Below, one piece after another: positions 8,388 through 59,400 of a stretch of 64,000 bases of DNA; positions within the stretch are counted from its first letter, which is position 1, and each line of letters starts with the position of its first letter. Location: positions 310,001-374,000 of the forward strand of contig CDROCS010001417.1 of assembly GCA_977020255.1 (NCBI GenBank), in the 5' to 3' direction. This DNA is from Obrimoposthia wandeli (lineage: Eukaryota). The translations under genes were made by a program, and so were the position numbers. The notes beneath the pieces were generated by a model. The model worked only from the letters and a program-made list of their open reading frames with translations. It was not told where the DNA came from and did no database searches.

Positions 8388-11300
8388 GTGATAATTTATT
8401 ATTTTGGTATCGTTGATGCATACATTTTGTGAACTTTAATTTTAAATATCTGTACGATTTAAATATATTTTAAAAAAATGTAATGGATACTACTTATATT
8501 TATAATTAGATAATGTGATTTTATAACTTTTGTAAACAATTTAACTATAACTTTTTAATTTAAATTAAAGAAATTTTAAGATAGTTTAGCAAAGAAATTA
8601 TTTTAAATATTATCTTTGATTTGATTGATAAAAACTCATGAAACAACAGAAGACTTTATTTATAATTTCATATTTTATACAATAATACATATATGAACCA
8701 TTTCAGTCTTATCCATTTATGGCCGATGAACCGCAATTCAGAAAATAATTCCGAAATCCAGTTTGAAACATCATTCGATATTCAATATATTTGACACTGT
8801 CGTTTTCTGTTATTTGCAAATTTTTCTTTAAAATAAAATTCATTAGACTTTAATTACGTAATCCATATTTTTTTTAATATGACATATTTGAAGACCATTA
8901 GGAAATTGAATTCAAACTGCTAAATAAAGTGTGCAACGAAACTTTAAAACCTTTCGTTTTTTCTTTAATCATATACATGAAGTTGCATATATTTAGATTT
9001 GTTTGATAAAAAACAAATGAAGATTGATAAATAATACAATCAAAATTATTTTAAGGTTTTAATCCATTTCGTCCTATCTTACGGTAACTAAAACCGGTTT
9101 CGATGCATTATACTAACAAAGAAAGTGATTGAAGTAGACTTATATACTTTTAGGAGAAAAAACAAAATATAATTTTTGTAAAATTAAATTTTAATACATT
9201 TATTAAATCAACAGATATATAAAATATTAAAAAATATATATAAGCTTTACTCAAAGACCAAAGAGGTTCTATTTTTCATCGGTATCAGCAAAATATCCAT
9301 TAAGCCACATTGAAATATTCTATATTTCTCCATCTAAATGGAGAGCAATCAAATAAACAAGGTCATGTCTAAAAGCCAGTCTGGGATAACTTTCAATCTG
9401 CAAAGAATTACCTTCATATGCATAAATAGGATGCAAAATTCTAAAATAATTCTGAAGTGATCAATATCAGATGTTGTTAAAATTTCAATTAAATATTTAT
9501 TTTTGACTTTTGATATTTTCACAGGATTTATAACTCGTATAATTTGATACCTTTATCATATATTACATGGTTTTATTTTGAAATAAAAATGTCTTACATC
9601 ACTCAGAAGCGGATTCATTTTAAAAATAAAGAACTGATTAAAAAACATATATTTATATAAAAATATATTTGAACAAAATACAAATATTATGAAACAAAAA
9701 AAAACTGATTACAATTTATTACTAAAATACAGGTGTAAATATACAAATGTAAGAAACATGGTAAAAGTAAACTAATATAGAAGAAAAGAAATAGTAAAAT
9801 CATAGAGATACGAGCACCTTCAATTTTCCATTTAATCACTTTTGTAACCATAAACCCAATTGTTACTGCATCACTCTTTTCAAAAACGCATTAACATCTA
9901 TTTCCCTTTTATATTCATCTAAAATGCTGAATTAGCTCCTCGAATATAAAAGTCGTTCTTAATGAATATAAAATTTGGAACTACTTTTTCAACTTTCTGT
10001 TTAAGATATTGAAATCGGATTTTGAATATTTGATAGATAATAGCTAAACTTTCTTCTTTCAATTGTTACAAGATTTACAAAAGCTATTAGTTGAGTCTTC
10101 TTCACGAACATTAATTTTTATTTTACATATTGTTTTACTTTTTCATACATATTTTTATCCGAATCTTCACACATTTCTAAATCTTCATACTCGCTGAGTA
10201 TTTGTTGGCTGTCTTCCCTCATTGATAATTATCTTTGATATGAATGCATTTATAATGATTTTTCTTCAATGGCACATCCTTTTATACTAATTTGTAACAA
10301 AGGCATAAATCTAGTTGGTTCATATAACCAAATCATTGAATTTGATTAGGCAAAAAATGCTATATTTTAATCATCCAATTATAATAGGTTTGCAAGGTAT
10401 TTACTAGAAATGAGCGATAAAATAACAAGTTCATATATATATTTATTTGTATAAAGAAGAATTTACAGAAAAATAAAGTATAATGAAACTCGTAAAAATT
10501 AAATTATAAAGGAAGAATATAATATGATATTTCACACTTACCATTCAATAAGTGGAAGCCGAGACGATATGTAAAAAGGTTTCTTGACTTCACAGTTGTT
10601 ATTTTTCCTTTGTATTAATTTTTATTTTCATATTAAAATTTTCTTGAAAATTGTTGTGTTATGAGATGCAAAACACCGTTGAATGACATAAATCTACCAT
10701 TTGTAATTCATATTAGCATCATACAATCAATCACAGTTTCAGGCAATCTTGGAAAACCAATAAATTTTTATAAAATGCCGAGAAAATAAATGAGGAATGC
10801 CTGTTTGAACCTGATTTTTTCTGTTACTTATATATTTGAAGTTTACATCGCTATATGTAAATGTATTTTCCAGTCGTATGATATTGGGATTGATAAATTT
10901 GAATTATCTGTACGCTGTTGAATCCATTTTTCAAAATATATTTTATTAAATTTTTAAAATATTTTCTAGCAACTATAAACGGTAAAATTATTAATTTTTT
11001 CAAATGAATAATACTAAAAACACTGATAATGAAGTCGATCGTTTAGTTGACAAAATGTTTTCATGGAAAATTAAGGGTAAACACATTTTATATTAATTAA
11101 ACTGTATATAAAATAAACCTAAACTGTAGTTTACTTTTTGTATTTTTTTTCTAAAAATATTTGACAAAACCATCATCATAATCATTTTCATCGATATCCC
11201 CGACCTTTTAGGAGAGGTTCTAGAGATGCTAGTTGTTTCTTCTTCAGTCGGCCCGGCTTCTTCTTCGGCTGCACAACTACTGGTTGCTGTGCAGAAATTT

Positions 11301-23400: not shown

Positions 23401-26400
23401 TCGTTGGTGGATTCTATGCCTTGTAATGTTTACGCTGACCTCAGATAAGTGAGGCAGTGCGAATTAATACATGACCTTTGACCTACATTTTAAGTGGCAA
23501 CTGAACAGGAAAATTGAGAGTTGTAAACATTCTGAACCATTCTGTGTTCAGCGGTTTATAGCTGCTGATTTATTCTAGTGACACGTTACCAAACCATTTC
23601 AATACAATGTAGTATGTGATTTGGAAAGTATTGTAACCGTCTGGACACTTTTATCCGTTATATGCCTTGAGTAATATTTGATACAAATCCGTTACTGACA
23701 ATTAAAAGTACATTATCCCCATTTATAAATTCTGATCAGTTATCTGGAGATTACGAACCGTGATAGTTCAAGGATAGAATGCTACGACTTTTATGAGAAC
23801 TCCCATTTAATTCTCAGTCTCGGCAACTAACTTTCTCTTGAATCAAACTCATACAGTGCACTTTTAAGAATTTATTGTAATTTCAGTCCAGAATTTAATT
23901 TACTACGTAACATAAAACTACATTATTTAACCCATTTGATGCCATACTTCGTTTAAACGAATAATGCATTTCTTTGAGCAACTGATACTTTTTCCTATTG
24001 TTAAAATTAAAATACTTCGATTAAGCAATATTATAGCGCTTTATTTTCATTCTTTAGGTATTTTAAAGATAAGTGAACGAATAAAATATATTTAAAACAA
24101 ATTTATGCTGATCTATGGATCAAGCAAGAAGATCATTATAAGAAAAAAAATTTAATTACAAGTCAGTTGATTACATAAAAATAGTTAGAAAATTATTTCT
24201 TATGAAAACTTGTCAAATTTTCACAATTTTCTATTTCGTCAATATTCATTTAAAATACAGCTAAATCCCGTTAAATACCGTGAAAACTTTCTACTACATA
24301 TGATTTTAAAGGGTTTTTGAGGAACCACGGGTCATAAAAATTACTTGTTAATAAAGAATCACAATCGACTAGACATCACAAAGCTGCTTCACCATACAAT
24401 GTTAGAACCGATCTTCAAGGTACTACTAAGCGTCGCTGAGCACAACAATTACACTCATAAAATGTGTCTTTCAATGTGTCTTATCAATTTTCATCAAGTA
24501 TAAGTAGGTGGATGTGTCCGGTCTAATCCACATCCCCCCTTGTCCTTTAAGACCGTGCATGTGTGTGGAGTGAAATTTCGTGTAGGTTTGTGGAGTGAAA
24601 TTTCACTCCACACACATGCACGGTTTTAAAGGACAAAGGGGGGGCCCTAACATTTTTTCGCGCCTCACGGCGCGAAGGGCTCGGGACTGATATAGGTCAC
24701 AGACTAGCTTGGCGATGTGCAGATGTCTGGCTCTCATATATGTCACAGACTAGCTTGGCGATGTGCAGATGTCTCGCTCTCATATATGTCACAGACTAGC
24801 TTGGCGATGTGCGGATGTATCGCTCTCATATATGTCACAGACTAGCTTGGGCGATGTGCGGATGTCTCGCTCTCATATATGTCACAGACTAGCTTGGCGA
24901 TGTGCAGATGTCTCGCTCTCATATATGTCACAGACTAGCTTGGGCGATGTGTGGATGTCTCGCTCTCATATATGTCACAGACTAGCTTGGGCGATGTGTG
25001 GATGTCTCGCTCTCATATATGTCAAAGACTAGCTTGGCGATGTGCGGATGTCTGGCTCTCATATATGTCACAGACTAGCTTGGCGATGTGCGGATGTATC
25101 GCTCTCATATATGTCACAGACTAGCTTGGGCGATGTGCGGATGTCTCGCTCTCATATATGTCACAGACTAGCTTGGCGATGTGCGGATGTCTCGCTCTCA
25201 TATATGTCACAGACTAGCTTGGCGATGTGCAGATGTCTCGCTCTCATATATGTCACAGACTAGCTTGGGCGATGTGTGGATGTCTCGCTCTCATATATGT
25301 CACAGACTAGCTTGGGCGATGTGTGGATGTCTCGCTCTCATATATGTCACAGACTAGCTTGGGCGATGTGTGGATGTCTCGCTCTCATATATGTCACAGA
25401 CTAGTTTGGGTGATGGGCGGATGTCTCGCTCTCATATATGTCACAGACTAGCTTGGGTGATGTGCGAATGTCTCGCTCTCATATATGTCACAGACTAGTT
25501 TGGGTGATGGGCGGATGTTTCACCACACCACACCACACCACACCACACCACACCACACCACACCACACCACACCACACCACACCACAAACAACAACACCA
25601 CCACCGCCCGCCCCTTAGGGGCGGGCTCCATTCTCGCGAAAATAACTACAAAAACATGCGCTACAGTATCACTTTACCTCTCACAACTACACATGTCGAC
25701 AACCCGTGTCATACCCAAGACCCTAACATACATCGCACACCGCCCGCCCTTGGAGGCGGCCTTCATTCTTGATCTTTAGGCACGAAAACATTACAAAATA
25801 TAAATTATTTAAATAAGACGCCATTTTTTTTGTGCCAAATTTAAAATTTTCAAAATGGCTTTTAAACAAAAAAATTTAAAAATTAAAATAAAATTGTTTA
25901 CAAAATTTTTATAGTTTAAAAATAAAATTTCCAACATAATTTTTTACAACAATTTTTATAGTTTAAAAAAATAATTTTACACAGAACTTTTATACTTTAG
26001 AATTAAAATTTTAAACTTAGAAAAAGACGAATTGGATACAAATATTTATTAAACCAAAGAGAAAATTAGGTACATTAAATTTGTGACATACAAATTCAAA
26101 CATACAAAAAAAATTATTCAAGTGAAAAATCATCTGGATATCTATGATGTCTGTAGACAACTGACCGGTTTTTCTCTACCCATTTTCTCTCATCGTCATT
26201 GCTACTCAATGCGATCTTACTCATATTTACGGTATAGAGCTGGTGATTAATTGAACTAATGCGTTGTTGTTGTTACACTCGTTTACTAACCCCACTATCA
26301 TATGCAGCTAAATAATTCGCATGGCGTAGCACAGTCTGCTTAAGGCTAATTCCCTTTGCTCTCATCTAGAACTTTCCGTCTATAGTTTCTAAGCTATATG

Positions 26401-29400
26401 ATTTGGAGCGTAAAAATACCCATTGCTTATATCTACATTGCTTACTCTCATCCTTAAACTTGCCTATCGCAGTATTGGCTAAAGGATGGTTTATAGAAAA
26501 TTTTGATGTGTCTAATAATCCATCTGAAATCATTGCAGACAACAGTGTAGCTTGCACGTCTACATTATGACACTTTAGAAAAAAATTCTAATTTGGATAT
26601 AAAAAGTTCGATTTTTAATCATTTTATGTTTATATTTATGGATTTTAGAATACATTTTATCGTGTATATTTCAGAATAATGTAAATTAAGATGCAAAGTT
26701 GAATTTTATATCATTTATAAGGATTTTAGTTGACAAATGAATTTACTGTGTAATTTTTCTGAATAATGTAAATTTCGAATTAGAAAGTTCGATTTTCAGT
26801 CAATTTATAGATTAGAAGATACATTTACCAAGGATTTTTAGAATAATGCAAATTATAATGCAATTAATTGATCATTTTTCAATGAATTTACCCATATTTC
26901 TATAAATTTTCTTTGATTTTAGTTTAAGGACAAAATTACTTTCAGAACAAATAAGTTGTATTTACTGACGATTCTTATGTGCCAGCGCGTCAATAAAGTT
27001 TTCATGGTTTCTTATATGGTAGATGCACTAATTGGATTTATTTTCAACATATTTAAAGGATTCCTCCGTGTAATAAAGATATAATTTGAAGAGAGTATAT
27101 AATGATCAATAAGTGAGAGTTTATTACGGACAATTATACGGATAATTAGAGAGATTACTTTGATCAATTAGTCAATTTATGATCAAGAGTATATTATTAA
27201 TCTGCATCTTTAACTAAGAATTTTATTAAATTTCAAAATGATTCATTAAATCTAAAATGTTCTCTACTTTCTTTTAAAAACGTTTTTTTGTAAAAGAATC
27301 TGTAAAAGTTTTGTTAATAAAAAATGATTAGTTTCAAAGAATATTGTTTGAAGATTAGCTTATTTAAGGAAATTAATCTATGTAATAAATAATTAATTAA
27401 ATTATCACTAGTAAACATCGGATATCAATACTATATTGGAACATTTCGTTTAGAAATTATTACATCAGGACTAGAAATGGATTAAATTATATTCTCTCTT
27501 TCGATTCATTTAAACCTAAAATTATTTTCAAGTATCATTTATTGATATAATTTATTCAATAATGTTTAGAGTATGTATTTATCTCAGTCATAATTTATTC
27601 ATATTACTTGAGTCTATTGATAACTATATTCTCAAAACATAATTTTTCATTGATCGATATATCAAACAAGAAAATTCTTGCAAAACTCTACAAGCTTATT
27701 GATTCATTGGTGTTATCAATATTTTGGAAACTTATTTTCAAACATCAACAACTAGTCGATTTATTACTTCAAATAAATCGGTTTAGTAAAGAAATTATAC
27801 ATAAAAGGTTCTATAAGAGAAATTAAGAAGATGCATGAGATTTGTTACATTTAGATGAGATATGACATGGGTGTTTATAAGGTTTAAGAATAGAAAATAA
27901 TGGATAGAGTTTTAGAAGAGAAACTCACGATTTGTTCAAAAGGTTCTCTAGAAGAGTAATTAATACATAGAAGATTAAAGATAAGTAGCGGTTCAGAGGA
28001 GAAATTAACGATACTTTTAGGAGGTATCAAAAATATAGCCTAGATTGGATTATGAAGTGAAATTGATGTGATTTATTTAAGAGATTTAGGAATGGAATTT
28101 AGGAAGTTTATAAAATAATTTATTACATATAAGAGGAAATTTACGAGGTATTTAGAAGGTTATAGAAGAAATATTAATGCATAGAATGGTTATAAAAGAC
28201 AAATTGAAAAAGTGTTTAAGAGGTTTCAGAAGATATATTATAGATTTGAAGTGTTTAGAAAAGATTTAGCAGGAATGTTTAGGAGGTATCAAAAAATATA
28301 GCCTTAAAAGGCGTTTAGAGAAGTATTTAAAAGGAGTATTTAGGAAGTTTCAGAAAAAAGAAATTAAAACCTAAAATTGGTTCATAGGGGAAATTAAAGG
28401 GTTCCAAAGAGAATTTAACCGAGGAGTTCAGAAGAGAAAATATAACCTTAAAGGAGATATATATATATCAATAGGTATTAAGGAAAACTTAAAGAAACAA
28501 CTTCTGAGTATTGATAAAGTCATCATATTTTTATAAAAAATCGGGTGAAATCTTTATGATTACTATTAATAGTTTTGGTTCATATAAATGGATTCTATCT
28601 TCATTAGACATTAAAAATACTTTTAATCAATTAATATTAAGACATTGAATGAAAATTAACGATTTCATTAATACATAGTAAATAAGTTATTTTCAAAGAG
28701 AGTTTTATCGAAGTCATCAATATTATCGTTCCAAAGCCAATATTTAAGCATTTCATCTATTCCTTCTACATTCCTTCAATTAAAATCAAAGCTAGGTATG
28801 ATATTTTTTTAAAGATAATGTTTGAAGTATTTTATTGAAATTTAGATGCAATAATGAAGAATAGTGTTAAAGAATTGACATTAGGATGAATTAGAGGTTA
28901 TATCTGAAAGGGATAATCTAGAATTGATTGATATAAAGAAAATTAGGGTTGATAATAGAGGTTTATGAGAAGGAAAGTTATTGAGAATTATAGGAAAATT
29001 TATAATTATGTTCTAATGTTGGACTTGTGATGAGGAAATTATACCCGGATTGTTATATATGAGAAGAGATAGTAATTAAAACGTATGCAATATTCAAGAA
29101 TATAAATGATTAATTACTATTTATATATGTTTCAAAAGGAAGATATTGAAAATTTCTAAGAGTATTAGTGAGAATGAATCAAATAGTTACAGAGACATAT
29201 CTATCCATTACTTATCAATTTCATCCATCGTTTCAAATTCATGGATCATCTGATTCAATCAATAACTTTAAACATAACATAGAAATCTCTGGAAGATGCT
29301 TCGTGATCATAAATAGTCTTAACCCAAGATCTCAAAGAAAGTTATACCGAAATTATATAGATTTAACTAATATCCAAAGACTACATCCAAAGTCAATACT

Positions 29401-32400
29401 CAAGCATCTTATCTACATTCATTTCATCAGCCAGCCTTGAATCATCATTGATATGATATTTATAATGTAGCATTTCATGAAGCAATGCAAAGTAGAAGAA
29501 GATATTACGAAGTATTTAGGAGATTTCAGAAGAGAAAATATACCCTAAATAAATTGAGGAATTAATCAGATATTGTGATGTATGACGGAATATTAAGAAA
29601 GTTTTAGAAGCGAGATGGGTTATTTTCTCTTCAAGCAACTCTAAAAGGACTGCATAATGCATACAAATCATCACGATAATAACATGTATTGCATGACGAA
29701 ATCTTTACATAACCTCATATATTATTGATTATTTTCAAAGTTAGTTATACTGAAATGATCAATAATGTATGTATTGTATCAATATTATGCACAAACCTGA
29801 TGAAAATACCTCATGTCAAAGAATCTTATATCAAATTTACAATCATAACAGGTATTTAAGATGATTTTATATCACATGTAATTGATAATTTTCTTAAGAA
29901 ACTGATACCAAAGTAATAATATTGCATATAATTCTTCAATATTATAACAGTTATCGTAAGCTTTAAAGTTCTATATAAAACCTTGAAAGACATATGGTGA
30001 TTATTGAAAGTTGTACTTAAATTATCAATATTTTACTATTATTTCAATATAGTAAGTCATATTCAAGTTTTTCATATTTTTCTTCTACTCATCAAATTGT
30101 ACACAGTCATTAAATACTTCAATTAAATCACCATTAAGGTTAAGTGTGAAGTAATAATAAGTAGAATAATTACGGTATATTTAAGAGCTTTAAGAAAATA
30201 AAGTGAACCATATTGATTATTTTCTCAAGAAACTTATACTACGTCAATATCATGATCAGATAATCAATTATGATTTTATATAATCTTTAAGAGAATGCTT
30301 ACTACTACATCAGTTTCTATATGGACTAAACGATAAAATCAAAAATCACCCAGCACTACTAGAAGTAAAAAATTTTCAACAAGCCATAAATGAAGAACAA
30401 CTTGTAGAAGTAGTGAGAAGTGATGACTTATTTTGTATAATTGATTCTACTTTTATTTGTGAGTAGAAAACGTTTTTGTAATCTTAAGCTATTTATCACA
30501 CATTTTTAAACCTATGAGTTAAACAAGTAAATAGAGATAGCAAAGAATAATTTTTATTAAAGATACATACATTGTTACACCATCATCTCTTCACAATATC
30601 ATAATCTTCATTACTTCGATCCATCTTCATTATCACAATCCTTCTTCTCATCAAAGCAATCACTCATCTTCAACCTTCATTATCACAATCTCTATTCATT
30701 CATCTTCATTATCGTGATTAATTAAAATAATCAATACATTTTTAAATATACATTTTAAAATATGTAGAGAAATATATATTATGTACTGATTTATACATGT
30801 TCAGAGATGGAATTTAACAAGGTGTTTACAGAGGAGAATTCTTCGAGAAAAGTTATTTAGTGATATTATTCAATTGTTTATTCTTTGAAGTCCGATTCAA
30901 ATTGATTGATAATGTTGTTTATGTAAATCGCTTCGTATTAGTCATATCCTTGAAGGGCTCACGTTCTTCGGTTACACGCGTGGGTCTTGTTATTGTTTCA
31001 GTTACTGGATTAATATTTTCTCTATGATTATTTCTATTATAATCCATATTAGCATATAAATTACTACCAGAACCAATATATGTGCTTGCTCTATCTTGAT
31101 TATCCATTTTCAATAAAAATCAATATCGGAATATTGTTTATAGAGATAATTTGTAATCTAAAAATAGATTTTCAAATAATATATAAGAATTAGTTTATAA
31201 TAATCAGTTTATAATAACCAGAAATGTTACTTCATAATATCAAATTTGTGAATATTAATTACAAGGGAATGGTTGTAAGCAATATTCAACACTTTAGTAG
31301 TAGGTGGAAGGATGGAGTCTAGACCACTTGACCCCCCCCCCTAAAGGGTGTCACACCATAAGGATGTCTCGCCACACCATAAGGGTATATGTTGGGTCAC
31401 CGGAGGTGAGGCAACATATACCCTTATGGTGTGGCGAGACATCCTTATGGTGTGACACCCTTTAGGGGGGGGGGGTCAAGTGGTCTAGACTCCATCCTTC
31501 CACCTACTTTTACCATTTCGAAGCCACATCAGTACCGACACAAGTGTGATAGTTATACTATCTGGTACAAATCTGGTAATATATTTTACATTTAAGTTTT
31601 AATATAATTTTGGAACATGTCGAATCATGGGGTGTAAAGCTGTGCTATATGAAAGCACTCTTCCGTTCAATATCAAAATCGAGAGAATTCAATCAATCAG
31701 TGTCAGTACTTAGTACTTAGAAAAACCAATAAACCTGAGTAAGATGAGTAAGAGTATGAGAATGGAAGCAGTTTACGAACCAGAAATTTTTCCAGGGCTA
31801 CGTTATATCAAATACAATCCTCTATGCGTGAACATTTTTGCGAGCGGGAAGGGCGATGATACTTGGCGTTAAGACCCTAGAATATGAATATCTTGTTGAA
31901 TGTATTTTATTTAATAAACATCTTCAAACTTGTGTTCTTTCCTAAACAAAGACATTACTTGCAAAAAGATGCAAAGTTGCAAAAGTTGTAATGTTACTAA
32001 AAATATATTTTCCCTTGTTTTCTGAATTATAAACAATACTCTTATAGCTTTAAATTTGTCAATAAAATAGAGAAACTCGGTGAACCATCATCAGCAGAGA
32101 AAAATGAAGAAATTATTGAAGATACTGATAAAGAAGAAAATAAGCGATTGGATTTCTTAAATGCTCTGATTTTTATAGAACTCGTAATAGCTAATGCTTC
32201 CAGTATGGAAATGTCTCATATGTCCCACCTTTTTTGATAGTTTGTTTAGAGCTAGATTTAACCAACTTAGTGTGGAAAAATTAAACAAAACCCCAATGAG
32301 CGAGATTTTAGTAAATCCATTATATATTGAAAATTATCGTGACGGGTTTGATGAAACTGAGATTCTAAAATTGAAATTCACACATGTAATCAATACATCT

Positions 32401-35400
32401 CCAGTGGATAAGATATCTTATAATGAATTAAAGTAAAAATCAATCTATGTAAATACGAAATTAGGAGAAACAGACTAATAATATAATTAAATAAACCATC
32501 AAAAATGGTGGGAAAGTTCTAGTATGTGGTCATTATGGAGGTTTACATGCTGTTTGTATTGTTATTGCATTTTTATCTCTTACAATGAGTGTTAAAACTG
32601 TCGGGAATCTTGCTAAAGTTAAACATAGTATTGCTACACCTAATGCAACTTTGCTTAATCAAATACGTATTTTTAATCATTATCATACAAAAATTGTATT
32701 TCTTATGATTCTCATATCATCTAATCAGATTTTAGTTGTATAGTATATAAACAGTTTACTTTTCAGTCCTACTTCATTATCATGTCTACTCGCAATTATT
32801 TCAAGCAAGATGTTGATCGGGCGGTGAAGAGTTTCATCTCGAAATATCTTATAGAAGAAAATGTTCTGAGACTCATCGAAGCAACGGATCTACCTCTGGA
32901 GGAGCATGTACGAAGAATAATTCACAATAAGGCAGTCAATCTTCTCATTCTGGGCTATAATAAGAAGAAAGAAGAGATGAAAGAAAAGAAGAGGAGCTTT
33001 TTCTGGGAGAAGAGTTTTTTATTGTTTGTTGGTGGATATATTTTAATTAAATATTTTAAGTAACTTTGTCTTATAAACACTATCTTAATACTAATATTTT
33101 TAATATAGACTTAAAGAATAATTATGCATGGAATCTTGCCGTGCTTAATACAACTTTGCTTAATCAAATACGTATTTTTAATCATTATCATACATAAATT
33201 GTATTTATCATGTTTCTACCATTATCCAATCAGATTTTAGTTGTATATAAACAGTCAACGTTTTGACCATACGTCATTATAATCTCTACTCATAATTATA
33301 TCAAACAACATGTTGATTATATATGTCAAACAAACCAGGTATAATTCATAAATTTCCTCACATATATCAATCAATTTTAGATTATCCCTTTCAGATATAA
33401 CCTTGAAGATGAGTGATTGCTTTGATGAGAAGAAGGATTGTGATAATGAAGATGGATCGAAGTAATGAAGATTATGATATTGTGAAGAGATGATGGTGTA
33501 ACAATGTATGTATCTTTAATAAAAATTATTCTTTGCTATCTCTATTTACTTGTTTAACTCATAGGTTTAAAAATGTGTGATAAATAGCTTAAGATTACAA
33601 AAACGTTTTCTACTCACAAATAAAAGTAGAATCAATTATACAAAATAAGTCATCACTTCTCACTACTTCTACAAGTTGTTCTTCATTTATGGCTTGTTGA
33701 AAATTTTTTACTTCTAGTAGTGCTGGGTGATTTTTGATTTTATCGTTTAGTCCATATAGAAACTGATGTAGTAGTAAGCATTCTCTTAAAGATTATATAA
33801 AATCATAATTGATTATCTGATCATGATATTGACGTAGTATAAGTTTCTTGAGAAAATAATCAATATGGTTCACTTTATTTTCTTAAAGCTCTTAAATATA
33901 CCGTAATTATTCTACTTATTATTACTTCACACTTAACCTTAATGGGGATTTAATTGAAGTATTTAATGACTGTGTACAATTTGATGAGTAGAAGAAAAAT
34001 ATGAAAAACTTGAATATGACTTACTATATTGAAATAATAGTAAAATATTGATAATTTAAGTACAACTTTCAATAATCACCATATGTCTTTCAAGGTTTTA
34101 TATAGAACTTTAAAGCTTACGATAACTGTTATAATATTGAAGAATTATATGCAATATTATTACTTTGGTATCAGTTTCTTAAGAAAATTATCAATTACAT
34201 GTGATATAAAATCATCTTTAATACCTGTTATGATTGTAAATTTGATATAAGATTCTTTGACATGAGGTATTTTCATCAGGTTTGTGCATAATATTGATAC
34301 AATACATACATTATTGATCATTTCAGTATAACTAACTTTGAAAATAATCAATAATATATGAGGTTATGTAAAGATTTCGTCATGCAATACATGTTATTAT
34401 CGTGATGATTTGTATGCATTATGCAGTCCTTTTAGATTAAATTCCGTCAGATATTTCAATTTATTTATGAAATCTCCTAAATACTTCGTAAGCATTGCTT
34501 CATGAAATGCTACATTATAAATATCATATCAATGATGATTCCTGGCTGATGAAATGAATGTAGATAAGATGCTTGATATTGACTTTGGATAGTCTTTGGA
34601 ATTAGTTAAATCTATATAATTTCGGTATAACTTCTTTGAGATCTTGGGTTAAGACTATTTATGATCACGAAGCATTTCCAGAGATTTCTATGTTATGTTT
34701 AAAATTGATTGATGATGATTTAATCATGGATAAATTGATAAGTAATGGATAGATATGTCTCAACTATTTGATTCATTCTCACTAATACTCTTAGTTTTCA
34801 ATATTTTCCTTTTGAAACATTATCATTTATATTCTTGTATTGCATACCTATCTCTTCTCATATATAACAATCCGGGTATAATGACTTATAAGTAGCTCTA
34901 ATTCATCCTACAACATATTTTTCATTATTGATTATTTCAATCTTCAACATTATCTTTAAAATATCAACCTAGCTTTGATTTTAATTGGGAATAGAAGGAA
35001 TGCTTAAATATTGGCTTTGGAACATAATATTGATGACTTCGATAAAACTCTCTTTGAAAATAACTTACTCGTTAATTTTCATTCTGTCTTAATATTAATT
35101 GATTAAAAGTATTTTAATGTCTAATGAAGATAGAATCCATAAACCAAAACTCTAACTTCTAAAACTCTAATTCTAACACTAACATCATTTTCCAAAAATA
35201 TATATGCGAAAAATTTACAAGAAGATGGTAAAAGTTTGAATAATATCTCTGCTTTTGTAAAAATTGTCTTCGTTATGGCCGAAATATGAGTAAAATACTT
35301 ATGATTAATTTTTGGTATAACTCGCTTTGAAGCAGTATAAAGCTGAAATTCAATATGATCGCTTATATCATAATCTTAAATGAAATGACCGTAATTTTGA

Positions 35401-38400
35401 TAAAATACGATTTCACTACAGTTTTAGAACAGTAGACTTATTTCCCTTCTAAACCACCTAAATATCTTCTAACTCACATTAAATTTCCTTTCAAAGTCAA
35501 ATATATCCTATATTTTTTCTTCTGAATCCTACTAACCTTATATACATCGCTTTTATTTTCATTCAATCTAGCTATCTAGGCTATATTTACCAAAACCTCC
35601 TAAACATTCCTGCTAAATCTTTTCTAAACACTCCAAATCTATAATATATCTTCTGAAACCTCTTGAACACTTTTTCAATTTGTCTTTTATAACCATTCTA
35701 TGCATTAATATTTCTTCTATAACCTTCTAAATACCTCGTAAATTTCCTCTTATATGTAATAAATTATTTTATAAACTTCCTAAATTCCATTCCTAAATCT
35801 CTTAAATAAATCACATCAATTTCACTTCATAATCCAATCTAGGCTATATTTTTGATACCTCCTAAAAGTATCGTTAATTTCTCCTCTGAACCGCTACTTA
35901 TCTTTAATCTTCTATGTATTAATTACTCTTCTAGAGAACCTTTTGAACAAATCGTGAGTTTCTCTTCTAAAACTCTATCCATTATTTTCTATTCTTAAAC
36001 CTTATAAACACCCATGTCATATCTCATCTAAATGTAACAAATCTCATGCATCTTCTTAATTTCTCTTATAGAACCTTTTATGTATAATTTCTTTACTAAA
36101 CCGATTTATTTGAAGTAATAAATCGACTAGTTGTTGATGTTTGAAAATAAGTTTCCAAAATATTGATAACACCAATGAATCAATAAGCTTGTAGAGTTTT
36201 GCAAGAATTTTCTTGTTTGATATATCGATCAATGAAAAATTATGTTTTGAGAATATAGTTATCAATAGACTCAAGTAATATGAATAAATTATGACTGAGA
36301 TAAATACATACTCTAAACATTATTGAATAAATTATATCAATAAATGATACTTGAAAATAATTTTAGGTTTAAATGAATCGAAAGAGAGAATATAATTTAA
36401 TCCATTTCTAGTCCTGATGTAATAATTTCTAAACGAAATGTTCCAATATAGTATTGATATCCGATGTTTACTAGTGATAATTTAATTAATTATTTATTAC
36501 ATAGATTAATTTCCTTAAATAAGCTAATCTTCAAACAATATTCTTTGAAACTAATCATTTTTTATTAACAAAACTTTTACAGATTCTTTTACAAAAAACT
36601 TTTTTAAAAGAAAGTAGAGAACATTTTAGATTTAATGAATCATTTTGAAATTTAATAAAATTCTTAGTTAAAGATGCAGATTAATAATATACTCTTGATC
36701 GTAAATTGACTAATTGATCAAAGTAATCTCTCTAATTATCCGTATAATTGTCCGTAATAAACTCTCACTTATTGATCATTATATACTCTCTTCAAATTAT
36801 ATCTTTATTACACGGAGGAATCCTTTAAATATGTTGAAGAGAAATCCAATTAGTGCATCTACCATATAAGAAACCATGAAAATTTTATTGACGCGCTGGC
36901 ACATAAGAATCGTCAGTAAATACAACTTATTTGTTCTGAAAGTAATTTTGTCCTTAAACTAAAATCAAAGAAAATTTATAGAAATATGGGTAAATTCATT
37001 GAAAAATGATCAATTAATTGCATTATAATTTGCATTATTCTAAAAATCCTTGGTAAATGTATCTTCTAATCTATAAATTGACTGAAAATCGAACTTTCTA
37101 ATTCGAAATTTACATTATTCAGAAAAATTACACAGTAAATTCATTTGTCAACTAAAATCCTTATAAATGATATAAAATTCAACTTTGCATCTTAATTTAC
37201 ATTATTCTGAAATATACACGATAAAATGTATTCTAAAATCCATAAATATAAACATAAAATGATTAAAAATCGAACTTTTTATATCCAAATTAGAATTTTT
37301 ATTCTAAAGTGTCATAATGTAGACGTGCAAGCTACACTGTTGTCTGCAATGATTTCAGATGGATTATTAGACACATACAAATTTTCTATAAACCATCCTT
37401 TAGCCAATACTGCGATAGGCAAGTTTAAGGATGAGAGTAAGCAATGTAGATATAAGCAATGGGTATTTTTACGCTCCAAATCATATAGCTTAGAAACTAT
37501 AGACGGAAAGTTCTAGATGAGAGCAAAGGGAATTAGCCTTAAGCAGACTGTGCTACGCCATGCGAATTATTTAGCTGCATATGATAGTGGGGTTAGTGAA
37601 CGAGTGCAACAACAACGCATTAGTTCAATTAATCACCAGCTCTATACCGTAAATATGAGTAAGATCGCATTGAGTAGCAATGACGATGAGAGAAAATGGG
37701 TAGAGAAAAACCGGTCAGTTGTCTACAGACATCATAGATATCCAGATGATTTTTCACTTGAATAATTTTTTTTGTATGTTTGAATTTGTATGTCACAAAT
37801 TTAATGTACCTAATTTTCTCTTTAGTTTAATAAATATTTGTATCCAATTCGTCTTTTTCTAAGTTTAAAATTTTAATTCTAAAGTATAAAAGTTCTGTGT
37901 AAAATTTTAATTCTAAAGTATAAAAGTTCTGTGTAAAATTATTTTTTTAAACTATAAAAATTGTTGTAAAAAATTATGTTGGAAATTTTATTTTTAAACT
38001 ATAAAAATTTTGTAAACAATTTTATTTTAATTTTTAAATTTTTTTTGTTTAAAAGCCATTTTGAAAATTTTAAATTTGGCACAAAAAAATGGCGTCTTAT
38101 TTAAATAATTTATTTTTTGTAATGTTTTCGTGCCTAAAGATCAAGAATGAAGGCCGCCTCCAAGGGCGGGCGGTGTGCGGTGTATGTTAGGGTCTTGGGT
38201 ATTACACGGGTTGTCGACATGTGTAGTTGTGAGAGGTAAAGTGATACTGTAGCGCATGTTTTTGTAGTTATTTTCGCGAGAATGGAGCCCGCCCCTAAGG
38301 GGCGGGCGGTGGGTGGAGTGTTTCGGTGGTGTTGTTGTTTGTGGTGTGGTGTGGTGTGGTGTGGTGTGGTGTGGTGTGGTGTGGTGTGGTGTGGTGTGGT

Positions 38401-41400
38401 GTGGTGTGGTGTGGTGTGGTGTGGTGTGGTGTGGTGGTAGTTAGTGATATACACGAGAGCGAGACATTCGCACATCACCCAAGCTGGTCTGTGACATATA
38501 TGAGAGCGAGACATCCGCACATCGCCAAGCTAGTCTGTGACATATATGAGAGCGAGACATCCGCACATCGCCAAGCTAGTCTGTGACATATATGAGAGCG
38601 ATACATCCGCACATCGCCAAGCTAGTCTGTGACATATATGAGAGCGAGACATCCGCACATCGCCAAGCTAGTCTGTGACCTATATCAGTCCCGAGCCCTT
38701 CGCGCTAAAAGGCGCGAAAAATTTTGAGGGGGTAGGACCCCTCCCTTGTCCTTTAAAACCGTGCATGTGTGTGGAGTGAATTTTTACTCCACACACCTAC
38801 ACGAAATTTCACTCCTCACACATGCACGGTTTTAAAGGACAAGGGTGAGGGGGTGTGGATTAGACCGGACACATCCACCTACTAGTATACTTTAATTTTA
38901 ATCTAAACTGATTTAGAAGGCTGGATGAAAAAGTTATGAAGCACAGGTTTACATGATGTTTCAATCGCTTTATTTCGGTTACTTAGCTAGTGAAGACCTG
39001 ATAACTTACAATAACATAATTGAGATTAATTGAATATGTTTGAAGACAAACTTATTCCTACATATCTTATTTATTCAAAATGCTCGTCGCCATCTTCAAA
39101 TATTATTTCATTTACTAATCAAAAGTGTCACATACAATTTACCGATTGTCCAACTAAACACCAACACGTATCAAACAAGACAGTAAAATGTATTTATAAT
39201 CATTTGTAGTCTGATTGGCCAATTTTGATTTTCAAATTATTATAATTCAGCAGACTATTATTTATCAGCAGTACTTTTGAACGTTTTATTTTGAAAAGTA
39301 GAGGATAGTTAGCTTATACATTTCTTTTCAGAAAGTCACAAGCAGGTGCAAATTAAAACATTCGGAAATTGGATCAACGGTCAATTTGCTAAGGTAACAA
39401 AGTGTGTTATTTGAATAGGACAACTGTTTTTATCAAAGTTTGAATACATAAGTGAGAAATATCACCTCTATATTATTATTTTAGTATTTTTTAGCATTTA
39501 AAAAAATTATTTTGCATCTCTCCTACTTAAAGCATGTTGTGTGCAGAGATGTGGCGATATAAGATTGGAAAATGAATGGCAATTTATTGAGTAAAACAAA
39601 AACGAAGCATACTAATAATTAATTTAACACTGAGAATTAGTGAACTGCCGAAAGAAAAGAAAGTTCCACCAGCAGACATATCTCGAGGAGATAGTGCACT
39701 TTGTTTTGAGATCAGTTTGGCATTTGCCGAGTAATTAGAAGAAACAGTAATCCATACCATTTTTACAGTAAACCATTCCTAACTTTTGTCAGTTTCAATT
39801 CAAATATTCGATAAATATTTTTGTTTCCTAGTAAACAACATTGAATAAAATATAGTTTCATTGAATATGTAGTTGCATTTAGTTCTAGAACTATCTAATC
39901 AATCTCTATTCAGAGTATATCAACCGTGTGAGCTAATGAAGAAAATACTATTTCCTAGTACAGTTAGATGCAAAATTTTGAGGCGCATTGCATAATTTAT
40001 TATATAAGGAGTTAAAATTTCTGTATAGAAAAATTCGTTAAATATTTCATGTATTTATAAAGAAAAGTTAATTCTGAAATGTAAGTTCATATATTTTAAT
40101 TTTATCTCGAATTTTTATCAACTCATCTGCATTACGTTTAAAAGTTATTAGTTAAATTTAATTTTTAATAATATTTAAGTGAAAGAATAATGTAGATAAC
40201 TTTGGAAGCTATTTTAAATATGCGATATATTTCAAAATTGCGATATATTTCAAAATTGCTTTATAAAGTATTATATATTACGATATAATGTGTATGAATA
40301 ATTTTAATAACATTTTATTCAATATATTTCATTTAATAATAAATTCACTAGAGAAGAAATATCACAAAAAATTATTCAAATATAACTAATATTAACAAGA
40401 AAATAAATCCAACTGGGCACCTCTGAATATTAAAATCACTAAATATAAATAAGGGTAAATATTTTTAAGATATCATTTTATCATTCATAACTAAATACAT
40501 GTAAAAACTGAAACTTTGAACTAAAAGTTCAGGTTAATTTTGTTTCAATGCTCTTAAATAGTCAAATTTTCAAAGAAAACATCTTTAGAAAATTTTATTT
40601 CTCATAAATATGTATATAAGTTATATTAATGAAAATGTTTAACTAATTTTTTATATCAAAAAGTAAAGTTAATAATTATAATGTATTTTCGATTCATTTG
40701 ATGTTCAATCTCAACATTGCATTTAACCTAAATACATTTTGAAAATAACTTAAATAAGCATATACTTCAAAAGATTTCAAACTTAAAAGAAAATCATTTT
40801 AGTTTGTAGTAAAAGTTAATTTAATATTTATTAGTCCATAAAGTAAAATAAATTAATTAACTTTTATCATATGTTTATGAATAAATACAGGCAATATTTA
40901 AAATTTGTATTAACGACAATATTTTATATTTGAATTCATATCAACCTATTTATGCAATTTCATAAGGTTCAAACAAATAATGCACAATATAATGAAAATT
41001 GTAGATTAATAATTTTAATACTGATGACAACTATAGAGAAATTCATATATAAAATGATAAAAATTATTTGAATATAAAGAAAATTTGTCATTTTGAGTCA
41101 AAAATGTTTCCTTGTGAGAATTAAAAGACAATAAAATGCTCATAGAAGTTATTTCCTTTCATAAGAAAATGTTCATTAGATATTTTAAAGAACCGATAAT
41201 AAATTATTATTACTATTTTATACATATATTTATAAGTAATATTATACTTATTTTACAAACCATTTGAAGTAAAAATGTAATGAATAAACAACTGTACCTT
41301 TGATTTGTTTAACTTATGTTTTATAATAACTACCTAAAATGCCACATAACAACGTGTTATATTTTATACTACACATGGTATATATTTTATTCAGGCTAAA

Positions 41401-53400: not shown

Positions 53401-56400
53401 AATGAATAGAGTAGAAAAATTTATGAGCTATTGCTGCATGCTGAGGTTTGTTAACTTTCTAAGGGAGCGCGTCGTGTCAGATTCGCAAACCTCTTCAATT
53501 GCATTCTAATTTTTTAATGAATAAGTTGTTTCATATATTTTATCGACCTAAAACTCATTCTGAAATATCTATTTTATATGGCGGGTCTTTATCGAAAGCT
53601 CAATGAAGTGAACAAGGCCAGAAGGCAGGATTTTGACTAATTTATTACAAACGAACCAGATCCACTTTCATAGGCAAGCTTGGCGCAAATCTGCAAAACA
53701 TTCTACGAGAAGAATTTCACTACGTCTCGGAACACGCTGCTTGGAAAGGTGACTTACTACCACAGGAGGTGGAGCACTATGGAAATGTCAGATATTCTGA
53801 AAAACGGCATTATCACTCGTTTTCATGATATGATCATTCTAAAAGTGAAAACTTGGATAGTTAATTTCTTACAAACGCCGCTGATTCTGAATTGACCCTT
53901 CAAGAGGAGCTGTTGGAACTAGCAAAGCTCACTTCAACCATGGAGACTTCATACAACTGTGACAGCGCAACAAAATGAGCAACTCTCTACCTAATATTAT
54001 GGTCCACGATGTGGATTTTGCTGTCGGTATTCTCCACGATTTATTTGTTTGAATCCGGTTTTAGTACAGTAGTCAATATTTTCACAAAACACAGAAACAG
54101 GCATAATAGAATTTAGAGAGGAGTTATGTTTCTGGCTCTCCTTAATCTGAAGCCCGACACCAAGAAATGGCAGCTGAACACCGGGTACAGAGATCTTATT
54201 AGAACATATATATATATATATATATATGTTTATTAAATAAATATAGAAGTTTACTTGGATTTTAATGTTTTTTGTCTATTTTGCTTGGAAGAGGGCGCTT
54301 TCAAAGGTTTAAGGTAAAAATTCATAAAAAGGACACGAGTAAATAAGATTGAGCAAGGAGAAATATTGAAAATGCTTGAAGAAAGAAATTCTTTAATATA
54401 ATATGAAAAAAAAACATGAGAGAAAATTTCTTACTGCACTTAGTAAACTTAAAAACATTAATGAAAAGCAAAAACAATGTATTGCAAGAGTATAAAAAAT
54501 ATATAATTCATATATTAGAAATATATCAAGAATGTTAGACTTAGAAGGTCCTAATTATTATGATACAATTTTTTTTATAAAGGATTTAGTACAGAAGTGC
54601 CAGCCAGATTGATATAATTACTAGTAGAACTAAAAAATATGCAGAAAATTAATTTCTAAAAACAATAGCTTAAAGAATGATACAATGATATGAGGTATGA
54701 TATCAAACTCTGGATATATGGTAATTTATTAACGAAGTATCTTACAAATGATGGCATGTCAAACATTGCTCAAATACAACTAAATAATACAAGGTTGCAC
54801 ATTGCTAAATATACTCTATCGTAGTTAGATGAAAATAAATATTGCTTATATATCTCGGCTGTCTAAGTCCCCAGTTATAAAACATATTTTTGGAAGATTA
54901 TCAAATAGATTCTCACCGAATAATTCAAATTATGAAGACGTCGAGAGCCTCAAGCGTACAATTATAAGAGAATAGAATAAGTAATGTGAAAATGACACAA
55001 AAGAGCTACATCTTTTCTGAACGATTATTAAAGATAGTTTAAAAGAATGTATCATTTAAACATTGTTATTTATAATATTATAACTTTTGTTTTTGCTTAT
55101 TTTATGTTAAAATATGTCATAGGAATATCTTTTTGGAACAAATGAATTTTTTTAATTTACTATTTCTTTTTATTAATGTAGATAAATACAATTTTTGAAA
55201 TATGTATTTCCTTAAACATAAAAATTTATGTTATCTCTACATATTTAAAATTCTTGTCATTGCAGTATAAACGTGTAGAGTTACATACAAAAATTAAGTT
55301 AGGCAAAATCTTTTGGGACGCATTATAATTATTTCATTCTAATATGTATTTTAATAAGCCCAAGTATCAAGTAATTTAGTTGTTTCTATTGGAATATTGG
55401 CAGGCAGAATCAAATAATGGGCTGGTGAAAGTTGAAAAATCAAATGCGAACAATTTGGAGATAGTTGAAGTAAAAGTTTATATCTAATATTCAATCTTAT
55501 ATCCATATTTAGACTCACGTTCCAACAATTAACAATGCTGTTAAAAATGTTTATATTTCTCTGGAGAACCGACCTAGTAAAGATTTAGATTCGGATCATG
55601 TTTCTTTTGCCTCTGAAAATTCCCCAAATGCAGAAAACGCCGAGTCTTTAGATGGCAATGAAATATCTCAAATAAAAACAAATGTTGAAGAAGATGAAAC
55701 AAATGTAGATAAACATAAAGATGATCTAATTTTTGTGCTTGATCGAAATGAGGAAGACATTTTAAATAATGGAAATCCAAACGACACGAAAATTATGAAT
55801 GCTTGTTTAGAAGAAGATTTGGTTTTGGATGTTAATGATGAAGTAGAGATAAGTGTCAAAGAAAAAGAGTTTGAAGCTTTAACTTTCCAGATGAATATCA
55901 AAGTTCCTGAAGAGAACTGTAGTATAAAACAACCTGTGGAAACTAATGAAGGATATATTTCTATAGACGTAAAAAATGAAATCTTTGAGGAAGCAGAATT
56001 TGATTTTAAAAAAATCGATAACTCCATTCACAAACCTCTTTTGGAGCGTGTAGAAATCAAAGAATCTGAAGTTCCGAACGAGGTATTTGGAGAAAATGTG
56101 GAAGATTACACTTCAAAAAATGTTCAAGGACATGAAAAACCGACAAATGAAGAATCTATTGATATTTTGAATAAGAACATACAACTTATTGAAGAACCAA
56201 AATCTGAAGAAAGGTTAGGAATTAAAGGAGACCTTACAAACTTTACAGATACTGATAAGGTTTCAGTTATTGAAGAATTTGTTGAAGTTGAAACGATGAT
56301 ATTGAATGGTACTGGAAGAAAATCTGAAAAAAATATCGAAGAATCAACATTTGAAAATATTCATAAGAATGAAGATTCAACAACCCTTGATATATTGAAA

Positions 56401-59400
56401 ACAGCCGAAGAACCTCCAGAAATGGATTCAATTGTTGTAAACGAGAACGTACAACTAACTGAAGAACCTTCACTTTTTCATTTAGAGTCTATAGAAACGT
56501 TTGAAGAACCTAAAAGTGAAAATATGAAGGAACAAGAAGACGCAGCAGATGTTAAGAAATTTATATCAGAAGAAAAAGTGGAAACAATAATTCAGAATTC
56601 TCGACTTGAAGAGGAACCTCCTGTATTGGCGGAAAATCTAGAACGATCCTTAGAAAATGCGTCCAAACAAAACTTTTTGTCAACTGCTACAAGGTTCGAA
56701 GATAGCACTGAAATAAACTTTGCGGAAACAAATTTCGGAAAATGTGAAAGAAATAAAGATGATAGTCTTAAATCAAACGAAGACCCCGATTTATTTAGTG
56801 GTGATAAAAAGCAAGAAAAAAAGAATGAGTTCAAAGAAGAAAACTTTGAAAAGTATACAAAGGAGCATGAAATTATTGTGGAAAGTGCATTATCAGATTC
56901 GTTAAGTAAAGAACTTTCTGCTTTAAACGAAGGAGATTTACTTTTGAAATTGGATAGTTTTGAAGGATGTGAAGAATCGGTATTTACAGACAAAGACAAC
57001 AAAAATTGCAATGATTTGACGAATTTTTTCGAAATCGAGAATACAAATAACTTGGAACCTTCAAAAGAAGTATGTTATGATTCTTTATTGTTGTTTTATT
57101 ATTATTTTACTAAGTGTAAGGTATAAAATTGATACTATATTGGTACTATAAATTCCATGATAAAGCCAGGTATGTATGAAATTTTCAATAAACAGAAAAA
57201 TTTTATTATTGCGATTTTAAAATTTTATCACAACCACAAATTCTGTTGTACTGATATATTTAACTTATACTCGTTTATATATCAAGTTTTGAATACCAAG
57301 ATTTATGGTGTAAAATTCGGAGTCTACTTATATATGAATATTAGTATTGATTAGTATTTTTAATTTTAAGACTCGTATTCAGTAACATTTCTTCAAGAAA
57401 TCAATAACCAATGAAGCTTAAAGGAGTAATTTAAGGAGATATTTCAGGAATTTTAGCTATTGGTATTGATAAATTATCCATATCTGAGAAAATAACATTA
57501 CAAATTATTTAAGGGAAAATGGTATCAAAATAATGAAGCTTTCTCATTATTAATAAAAATAAATAAATACGTTTGAAGTTAGTAATAATTTTAAGTTAAT
57601 TGAACATTTTAAATTGAAAATTCTTTCAATTAGTGTAATTAGTCGTGATAATAAAAATATTTTATCTAAAAACAAACAAGTTTCTGTAATTAAAAATATA
57701 ATTTTGGAAATAATATAATTTTTAATTTTTTTAAGACAAAGATAATCAAAATCTACAACATCCCAGTAATAAATTACAAATTAGTATTCAAATCAATAAA
57801 AAATATTCCAAAAAGTATTCCAATTGAGTACACAAAAATACAATTTACATAATCTTAATTTCGATTCTGTTAACGTATACTACTTTTCTATCAGAATTTT
57901 TCATCTCCAACGATTCAATTTGAAATTGATTAGTAATGATATAACTTCAACAACAAAAAGAATTAACAACTTTGAAGTTGAATACTTCACTTTGAAATAT
58001 CTTATATATTGGGAGAAACTCCTACAGTTATTGATTTAAATTTTATAATTTTTAGTGTTTATTTAGAGAATTATATTTTAATTCTTAATTTAATATTAAG
58101 CTAAATATCTTGAAAACCCTGCAACATCATAGCATGGATGAGCATTTTCATTTGTGCGATGGTCAGGTAGAAGACACTCTAGAGTTGAACCTTTACATAT
58201 TTATTTTCTTTCTTAGAAAAGAAACGGTGCATTTGTATTGTGAATTATTAAGAAGAATTTAATTACAGGAATTACCCTTAGGTTTCCAGTCAAGTACGGT
58301 AACAACCCCAGATTATTTACATATACATTCTCCGTTTACTTATCTCATCCCGCATGCCACTCGCTCTAATCGAAGAATCAACGAAGAATGGAGCGTAATC
58401 AACAATTTTCGTCATCATTGCCACCTAAATTTTTATTTTGTTAGGATACTTCAATCTCTTATAATTGTTAGTGCCCTGGTTGATTATATTTTAATTTATC
58501 TAGAATAAAATAGATCTAATGCTATGTAATTTCATTAAAAACCTAATTTAAAAAAAGTGTTTTTAAACACAAAATAAATAAATAACTATTTGATAAATAC
58601 AGGGTAATTCTTGTAATTAAATTCTTGCTAATAATTCACAAAACAATATGCATTGTTTCTTTTCTAAGCAATTTTAACTGAAGCTAAATCAAAATGAAAG
58701 AAAATAAATATGTAAAAGTTCAACTCTAGAGTATTAACTACCTGACCATTGCAGAAATGAAAATTCTCATCTATGATATTTTTGATATTTTTTAAATTTA
58801 AACAGGTTTAAACCTGTATGCATATTTACAAAGAAATCGAAAATATTAAGTTTGACTAAATTATTCTCTTTAAAAATCCCTCGAAATAATTTTCTTTCAA
58901 ATATAGTTTGGTTTAGTTACTTATTATAAAATTTAGATAATTTTATTTAAATCTTTGTTTCAGGTTTTACCATTACATGAAAGAAATCTGTTTGTAAAGA
59001 ATGTTGAAAGCAGAGAACCGGAAAAAGAAACATTTTTGGTAAGATGCTAATTTGTACTATAACTCATTATTGTGAATAATTTTCTTAACTCAATAATAAA
59101 ACGTATTTTTTTATTGAATTTTATTTGTGAAATTTTTTTAACATATATTTTGAAAAATTCTGCATTTTAGATTTTTAACGCTTGCTTCTTATATCTATAT
59201 CTTAGTCTTTGTATATTTTTGTCTGGATATCCATATAGCAGACATACTTATTATAAAACATGAAAACAAATATAATTAATCATGAATTTCTTACACGGGA
59301 ACGAATTGTTTTGTGCAATGCTCTAATTTTGATATTTTGAAATTCTTAAATTACAATAAACCTTATAATATTCGAAATATAGGTTGGGTGTTGAATGACT

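Follow-up and report, generated by a model that had tools for sequence, protein, structure and literature searches.

Why a mobile element of the Polinton type should carry a gene for a TATA-binding protein (TBP) is the question raised by a 64,000-nucleotide (nt) stretch of the Obrimoposthia wandeli genome (contig CDROCS010001417.1, positions 310,001 to 374,000), here called the window. The assembly that holds it is eukaryotic, AT-rich and 1.35 Gb in size. In an original prediction made from the letters alone, a divergent TBP-like gene had been read in the core of a Polinton-like element, and control of host RNA polymerase II (Pol II) transcription had been suggested. The gene is present, and the copy in the window is a pseudogene, unable to make the protein. 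It belongs to a wide family of mini-TBPs of about 145 amino acids (aa), found in this genome and in other samples. In intact elements the mini-TBP probably serves as a late transcription factor, which would bind (T/C)ATAAAC(A/G) and, some 30 bases downstream of it, bring in TFIIB and Pol II of the host. The suggested control of Pol II would then hold solely as a steering of the enzyme to the element's own late genes.

The IFASGK frame of the window (31714-31869, 52 aa) was matched to PF00352 with 29.7 bits (E 5.9e-7; cut-off 22.9), or 32.1 bits with stops read as X (range 29.7-35.8 bits), and exon 2 of the parent gave 49.8 bits. The last strand, ILGVK, lies in a separate frame from 31859, and the start codon is the ATG at 31224. 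Both TBP half-repeats are represented, as had been proposed, but the ILSG peptide taken for the first-lobe motif is in the wrong frame and was rejected; the first lobe runs on in another frame as ...KSG, and relatives read KPHQ...IIFKSG followed by a short intron. The TATA-like motif expected upstream was found (Table 1). The stretch proposed as an insertion proved to be a 210-bp AGTAGG-ended hairpin, present in the window copy and in none of 19 other copies, and the frame break near 31850 also stood; further breaks in exon 1, at the intron acceptor and at a stop in exon 2 had been missed, as had the intron itself.

The TBP-like piece was present in every copy of the window's family examined, and all 20 copies were broken. 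Exon 1 was in one frame in none of the 20, the intron acceptor was non-canonical in 20/20, a stop followed the first strand of the second lobe in 20/20, and the last strand was in frame in 2. Since the breaks other than the hairpin are common to the 20 copies, the gene died before the family amplified. Of 3,099 candidates for exon 2 of the pseudogene in the genome, at least 40 were copies with 98-100% identity.

A parent with its own TBP-like factor had also been proposed, and intact copies were found in related elements of the same genome. Families at 78-93% DNA identity to the window copy hold a two-exon mini-TBP gene with both exons open, in a Polinton context beside IAP, phosphatase-like, ATPase, integrase and pPolB genes. 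A putatively spliced GT..AG stretch of 37-40 nt lies in the same Gly codon in nine loci (eight from this genome, one metagenome contig), and the L034/L042 family is intronless at that codon. A length of 47 nt was obtained for the single intron of host TBP that was measured. No junction at the mini-TBP intron was seen among the 15 of 49 joints listed (four runs of unspecified kind, one sample), which is uninformative on expression and splicing. The host has a head-to-head pair of TBP genes within 2 kb and, at other places, two TRF-like genes without introns (L021, L022, L024, L025).

The ratio of non-synonymous to synonymous substitution (dN/dS) was 0.05-0.30 in 10/10 pairs of five related copies and 0.04-0.28 against the window copy (72 codons each), and the mini-TBP is under purifying selection between related families. 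A protein search with an intact copy returned 62 proteins, mostly of 145-150 aa, among 72 candidates, and a profile search returned 65 clusters at E<=1e-30. Archaeal taxon labels attached to the mini-TBP in the Atlas, which rest on 1-9 members, were left out of account. A Polinton core gene was found on the same contig in 42/81 outside loci, many of the remaining contigs being 1-2 kb long. Three forms of TBP occur in Polinton context, namely mini (143-165 aa), intermediate (165-171 aa) and two-lobed (172 aa). In a quick, unrooted tree of 80 rows, with SH-aLRT support and without bootstrap, a branch with SH-aLRT 96 separated the mini forms from host genes, the two-lobed forms fell on their own branch (98), and the mini and intermediate forms were split from the cellular and two-lobed forms (98). 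One near-canonical two-lobed TBP (L173:3178-3507), whose contig also gave weak matches of capsid-like and protease-like type, grouped with cellular TBPs and is possibly a separate capture.

These data bear on the reading that the gene is a recently captured, processed host TBP, carried as a functionless passenger. The broken state of the window copy and of its family would fit such a passenger, but the gene shares no more than 45% identity with host TBP (44 aa compared) and has an intron where host TBP has none, and no DNA match to the window was obtained with any of 10 host TBP/TRF loci. Together with the profile match, the presence in every copy examined, the low dN/dS and the branch apart from host genes, this leaves practically no chance for a recent capture, which is refuted by the protein family, the selection and the tree.

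The AlphaFold2 (AF2) model of a natural intact copy (56 sequences) reached a pLDDT of 94.8, with strands only in residues 1-75 and a complete second lobe. No helix was modelled in residues 1-81 (pLDDT 87-97), in agreement with the alignment gaps. All 144 residues of the model aligned with TBP as a two-lobed saddle β-sheet (Z 13.8, root-mean-square deviation (rmsd) 2.5 Å), the top 44 Foldseek rows were TBP structures, and the best viral matches (BFVD) were giant-virus TBPs. The mini-TBP is predicted to retain the saddle without the helices of the N-lobe. In the intermediate TBPs (L144-L155, 165-171 aa) the two helix regions of the first lobe are still present but shortened, which suggests a stepwise loss of the helices.

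Residues were counted in an alignment of 124 mini-TBP members, with yeast TBP numbering, which for all positions but E186, E188 and I194 follows PMC12529657 (Table 1). Three intercalating phenylalanines are kept (F116 in 119/119, F190 in 123/123 and F207 in 121/122), and the F99 position is not Phe. In two defining features, the four intercalating phenylalanines and the two helices per lobe (H1 and H2 of the first lobe being absent from the model), the mini-TBP departs from canonical TBP. The glutamates that contact TFIIB are kept (E186 in 117/123, E188 in 121/123). Six positions of the DNA face are fixed to other, non-host residues: V71>N (111/113), V122>R (118/120), T124>M (123/124), N159>S (120/124), I194>R (113/123) and L205>N (120/121). 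In the available text of PMC7221094, TFIIB contacts TBP at the stirrup glutamates of the second lobe, and the contacts of TFIIA, TAF1, Brf1 and Mot1 lie largely on helix H2 of the first lobe.

The motif (T/C)ATAAAC(A/G) was seen upstream of ATPase, core-like, integrase, penton-like, QGG, capsid-like, protease-like and nuclease-like genes. For the count, 10 loci with a two-lobed or unlinked TBP were dropped and upstream regions more than 70% alike were removed (n=98). The motif was present in 65/98 of the dereplicated regions, against 2.1 in shuffles and 1/98 on the reverse strand; by gene, it preceded 22/25 ATPase, 12/12 capsid-like and 7/17 integrase genes. The top 7-mer of the late-type upstream regions was ATAAACA. 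In a held-out set of ten elements with homology-anchored starts, the motif was found in 27/30 regions (reverse strand, 0/30), and over whole long loci the strand counts were 14:0, 11:0, 12:1 and 7:1. Gene starts lay at +30 to +39 from the motif in 56/122 cases, decoy ATGs dropped from 57 in 2460 nt before +28 to 21 in 2273 nt after it (p 1.4e-4), and YA peaked at +30 (51/173; p 1.2e-5 before correction for 40 positions). This spacing, with the motif about 35 bases before the genes, is that of a TATA box. Upstream of the TBP gene itself (44 relatives) the motif was found in 0/44 regions; canonical TATA was present in 18/44, and TCAY within the 35 nt that precede the ATG in 36/44. TGTTTWA was seen in 17/44 of these regions (L097-L142), mostly in ones without canonical TATA.

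Two further readings leave the TBP-like gene out of the matter and make the motif a Forkhead site of the host or a variant polyadenylation signal. ATAAACA fits the Forkhead consensus RYAAAYA, and the motif is often found where the upstream gene ends; but GTAAACA has no strand bias (31 vs 31) and ATAAACA does (182 vs 46). The base before ATAAAC is a pyrimidine in 71/80 and A in 6, and the motif is therefore not AATAAA. Start codons, moreover, peak 30-39 nt downstream of it. Both readings, held to be very improbable, were rejected on strand bias, preceding base and start-codon spacing.

In the mechanism proposed for the late factor, host TFIID would transcribe the TBP and SSB genes early, from canonical TATA and initiator promoters. 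Of the two TBP lobes, the first meets the downstream half of the box, which holds position 7; the mini-TBP would bind YATAAACR with the conserved second lobe on the YATA half and the remodelled first lobe on the AACR half, the latter reading the C at position 7. The EPE stirrup would recruit TFIIB from the host, because the elements encode none: no element-borne TFIIB was found in 25 ORFs (open reading frames) scanned, and the genome holds 29 TFIIB candidates against 19,768 for TBP. Virion genes would be driven outside TAF1 and Mot1 control, since without helix H2, absent from the model, the mini-TBP would offer no surface to Mot1/BTAF1, TAF1, TFIIA and Brf1 and would escape host regulation. 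The window's element, its gene function lost before amplification, would rely on autonomous relatives in trans. As background, Phe insertion occurs at TATA positions 2 and 8 (PMC13193136, available text), and C or G at position 7 can force a Hoogsteen pair (PMC4457894, available text).

The main rival is that a host TBP/TRF paralogue reads the motif and the mini-TBP is a decoy for TFIIB or host promoters, damping host transcription alongside the IAP and phosphatase-like genes. In favour of the decoy are the two TBPs and additional TRF-like genes of the host, TFIIB glutamates that hardly vary, the loss of the first Phe, and the place of the gene among host-modulating genes in the parent family. 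A decoy, however, would not need six fixed non-host residues on its DNA face; the motif is retained in different samples, on contigs whose GC content spans 27-48%, and is another one where the TBP lineage is another; and in the available text of PMC4457894 the yeast TATA element TATAAAGT is inactivated by C at position 7. A decoy is accordingly held to be unlikely, although it deserves some weight. Less likely still, and rather improbable, is a DNA-bending protein for replication or packaging, with the motif read by another element or host protein. An SSB-fold gene is the commonest neighbour of the TBP gene (20/81 loci), and single bacterial TBP lobes have non-transcriptional roles (PMC7221094, available text); a bending protein would leave the conservation of both TFIIB glutamates unexplained, as well as the TATA-like spacing of the motif to the YA start and to start codons.

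In a TBP-less Polinton group of the same host (L184-L203, 20 stretches; 91 matches to the PF21738 capsid), the motif preceded 0/21 ORFs, and start codons followed A-rich runs such as TAAAAAATG. One stretch of this set, L199, has a TBP match amid several motif sites, about 5 kb from a capsid match, and the TBP match was taken as part of a separate nested element.

Several points weigh against a mini-TBP that reads the motif. The TBP-less group is distant, its copies are nearly identical and count as no more than one or two lineages, and a TBP-less member of the same clade was not found among viral contigs (capsid and ATPase queries) or ten own-genome elements, so that the motif could be a trait of the clade. 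Three of the ten held-out elements have no TBP in 20 kb and keep the motif before the capsid gene; these three also lack the ATPase and look truncated. The held-out elements are kin of the discovery set, two of them 92-98% identical to marker proteins, and the motif was first spotted by eye on the data later counted, in regions from related elements. It also precedes 4/19 SSB and 3/5 PolB genes and just 1/8 QGG genes, and is not strictly late; YATAAATA stands in its place at two of the three late-type sites of L163 and at some of those of L165. Several host TBP/TRF paralogues could read a variant box. Within the dead family dN/dS is 0.51 and not 1 (12 synonymous and 24 non-synonymous changes, one frameshifted copy included). 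Every mechanistic step rests on correlation.

A second pairing was seen in the two-lobed lineage (L170, L167-L172; P0256, P0267, P0318), which has 156 relatives, some annotated in bivalve genomes. Here YATAAACR is absent before genes, YGTAAGA is repeated instead (one sample set), and the TBP carries different DNA-face residues. The distances from YGTAAGA to ORF starts were 35, 35, 35, 41, 57 and 82 nt, and other starts fit less well. One two-lobed relative is annotated as 'TATA-box-binding protein-like 1' in Mercenaria mercenaria, and L170:1302-1790 presumably resembles PC4. With a chance put slightly above even, animal Polintons run a two-stage, virus-like transcription with one 144-aa, helix-stripped TBP and a promoter code of their own. 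TBP surface and promoter word would co-evolve across lineages (YATAAACR with mini and intermediate, YGTAAGA with two-lobed forms) as orthogonal pairs that plug into host TFIIB, some of the genes having very short spliceosomal introns and some being annotated as bivalve host TBP paralogues.

The Polinton-like element of the original prediction (24503-38883) has the AGTAGG ends, but is a non-autonomous derivative, not a full Polinton. Both terminal inverted repeats and a perfect 6-bp target duplication (AGTATA) are present. Inverted arms of about 6 kb each enclose a unique core of 2.7 kb (30674-33402). The element has no long ORF. With ORFs of related elements as tblastn queries, no match to integrase, ATPase or capsid was obtained in it; of the pPolB and integrase expected of an autonomous element, only C-terminal PolB remnants were found. 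In the core, the same queries matched the TBP-like gene, the phosphatase-like gene and a small ORF. The late-type motif is retained at 32028, 32746 and 33072, one before each of the three downstream genes, with a duplicate at 33246. The 30-nt terminus of the element has 12,605 exact occurrences in the genome. The coordinates are given in Table 1.

Table 1. Features of the window, with position, strand and basis or remark.
Feature	Position	Strand	Basis or remark
Older, second TBP-like remnant from a different Polinton family	10486-10940	+	Sequence comparison
Non-autonomous palindromic Polinton derivative, 14.4 kb	24503-38883	.	AGTAGG ends, 6-bp target duplication
pPolB C-terminal remnant, left arm	26141-26587	-	tblastn; mirror copy 37298-37750, +
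Remnant of the parent's small divergent ORF	30922-31110	-	tblastn, 78% to L086:3001-3252
Putative early-type promoter of the TBP-like gene: canonical TATATAAG (31180-31187), initiator-like TCAGT (31204-31208)	31180-31208	+	Sequence
Exon 1, first-lobe strands, broken by hairpin and frame breaks	31224-31575	+	Comparison with relatives
210-bp hairpin mini-element, AGTAGG ends	31299-31508	.	Window copy only; imperfect 6-bp duplication, 4/6 bases
37-nt phase-1 intron-type stretch in Gly codon of first-lobe turn, putatively spliced	31576-31612	+	Non-canonical acceptor in the window's family
Exon 2: CRIMG strand and whole second lobe, YEPE stirrup	31613-31945	+	Stop 31711-31713, frame break near 31850
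Late-type motif YATAAACR ahead of phosphatase-like gene	32028-32035	+	Sequence
Decayed dual-specificity-phosphatase-like gene	32068-32700	+	Parent ORF L086:5466-6251 matches PF00782, 43.7 bits
Late-type motif and small ORF of no known family	32746-33050	+	Sequence, tblastn
Late-type motif and first bases of the ATPase gene	33072-33123	+	Similarity to parent stops here

The phosphatase-like gene, in the window and in L086, reads CGHYGSLH at the active-site region. This differs from the usual HCxxGxxR, and the product is perhaps a pseudophosphatase. Elsewhere in the window, a piece of another Polinton family (9284-11101) has TBP-like and SSB-like remnants of its own, the end of a third AGTAGG-ended element lies at 63455-64000, with a terminus that matches the 210-bp hairpin, and the longest open frame is found at 55513-57126 (537 aa).

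The gene order of the intact families is SSB, IAP, TBP, phosphatase-like, small ORF, ATPase, core-like, integrase, penton-like, capsid-like, protease-like, nuclease-like and pPolB. The capsid, penton and nuclease labels are presumptive and follow gene order and, for capsid and penton, size, and the capsid-like ORFs of the parent elements gave no Pfam match. In the parent families L086/L087, pPolB was matched to PF03175 (52.4 bits) and the rve integrase to PF00665 (46.4 bits), and a Walker A motif is visible in the ATPase sequence; matches of parent ORFs to Peptidase_C5 (17.7 bits) and Adeno_PX (16.7 bits) were both below cut-off. An IAP gene (BIR 51 bits, RING 38 bits) adjoins the TBP-like gene at L086:3333-4355 and L050:3654-4460, and the window's element is without it. 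When folded alone, the product of the commonest neighbour (L101:1788-2135 and relatives) was predicted as a T7 gp2.5/Enc34-type SSB (Z 8.5, rmsd 2.8 Å over 103 residues to phage Enc34 SSB), and a TFIIA- or TFIIB-like cofactor was rejected for it on this fold. Several copies of the SSB gene seem to carry an intron ahead of the SSB domain. Among TBP-carrying Polintons, L120:225-719 presumably resembles a ubiquitin-conjugating enzyme and L144:7145-8002 a KilA-N protein.

The mini-TBP would work like the TBP mimics of herpesviruses and giant viruses and is a member of neither system. With cellular TBP and its paralogues (TRF2/TBPL1; PF00352) it shares a predicted saddle over 144 residues, a complete second lobe with a YEPELFP stirrup and three intercalating Phe; unlike cellular TBP, it is about 35 aa shorter, lacks H1/H2 in the model, has lost F99, is changed at six DNA-face positions and is encoded by a mobile element. 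Polar replacements at TBP positions V122, T124, V161 and L205 are shared with ORF24 of Kaposi's sarcoma-associated herpesvirus and BcRF1 of Epstein-Barr virus (PMC12529657, Table 1, in the available text). Pairing with a variant late TATA box is shown for the TBP mimics of beta- and gammaherpesviruses (TATT), and we infer it for the Polinton mini-TBP, in which a polar DNA face and a variant late box are both present and paired by correlation. According to the available text of PMC12529657, ORF24 is a 752-aa multidomain protein with four Phe that binds Rpb1 directly, in a model incompatible with TFIIB, whereas the Polinton protein has 144 aa and keeps the TFIIB glutamates. Herpesvirus TBPs (ORF24/BcRF1/UL87) are large, with Pol II- and vTA-binding domains; the Polinton TBP ORFs, delimited by start and stop codons, have 144-170 aa. 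Like the TBPs of Nucleocytoviricota, the mini-TBP is viral with a diverged first-lobe regulatory surface, but most TBP-carrying Nucleocytoviricota have a TFIIB gene of their own, and the first glutamate is conserved in about 40% of them (both from the available text of PMC7221094), unlike the Polintons.

The elements resemble the Polintons/Mavericks, or adintoviruses, in terminal inverted repeats, 6-bp duplication and, in the parent families, pPolB, rve integrase and candidate ATPase, protease-like and capsid-like genes (Starrett 2021, PMC8502044, available text). In the text seen of that source, including the text supplement, TBP is a label in the legend of Fig. 5 only, within a section on non-animal datasets, and the text describes neither a family nor a reduced size, an intron or a promoter motif; this label is the sole trace of a Polinton TBP found in print. 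Neither TBP nor TATA is mentioned in the available main text of PMC11161782, 10.1101/2023.10.06.561300, 10.64898/2026.06.19.733378 or 10.64898/2026.10.13.758929, and no published description of the mini-TBP family or motif was found in a search that left figures, bioRxiv supplements, Repbase and subscription journals outside. Introners have been described in dinoflagellate elements (PMC12166617, available text).

Polintons encode no RNA polymerase, and a defined factor with its promoter word makes the timing of their virion genes a testable question. The word is a sequence marker for late genes and supports a true viral life cycle of these elements in animals. The mini-TBP would be a natural minimal TBP, in which binding of DNA and TFIIB is separated from the contacts to TFIIA, TAF1, Mot1 and Brf1, and would show how TATA specificity can change. 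Where a single genome holds thousands of copies of gene and promoter, these could influence transcription of the host and mislead the annotation of TBP paralogues.

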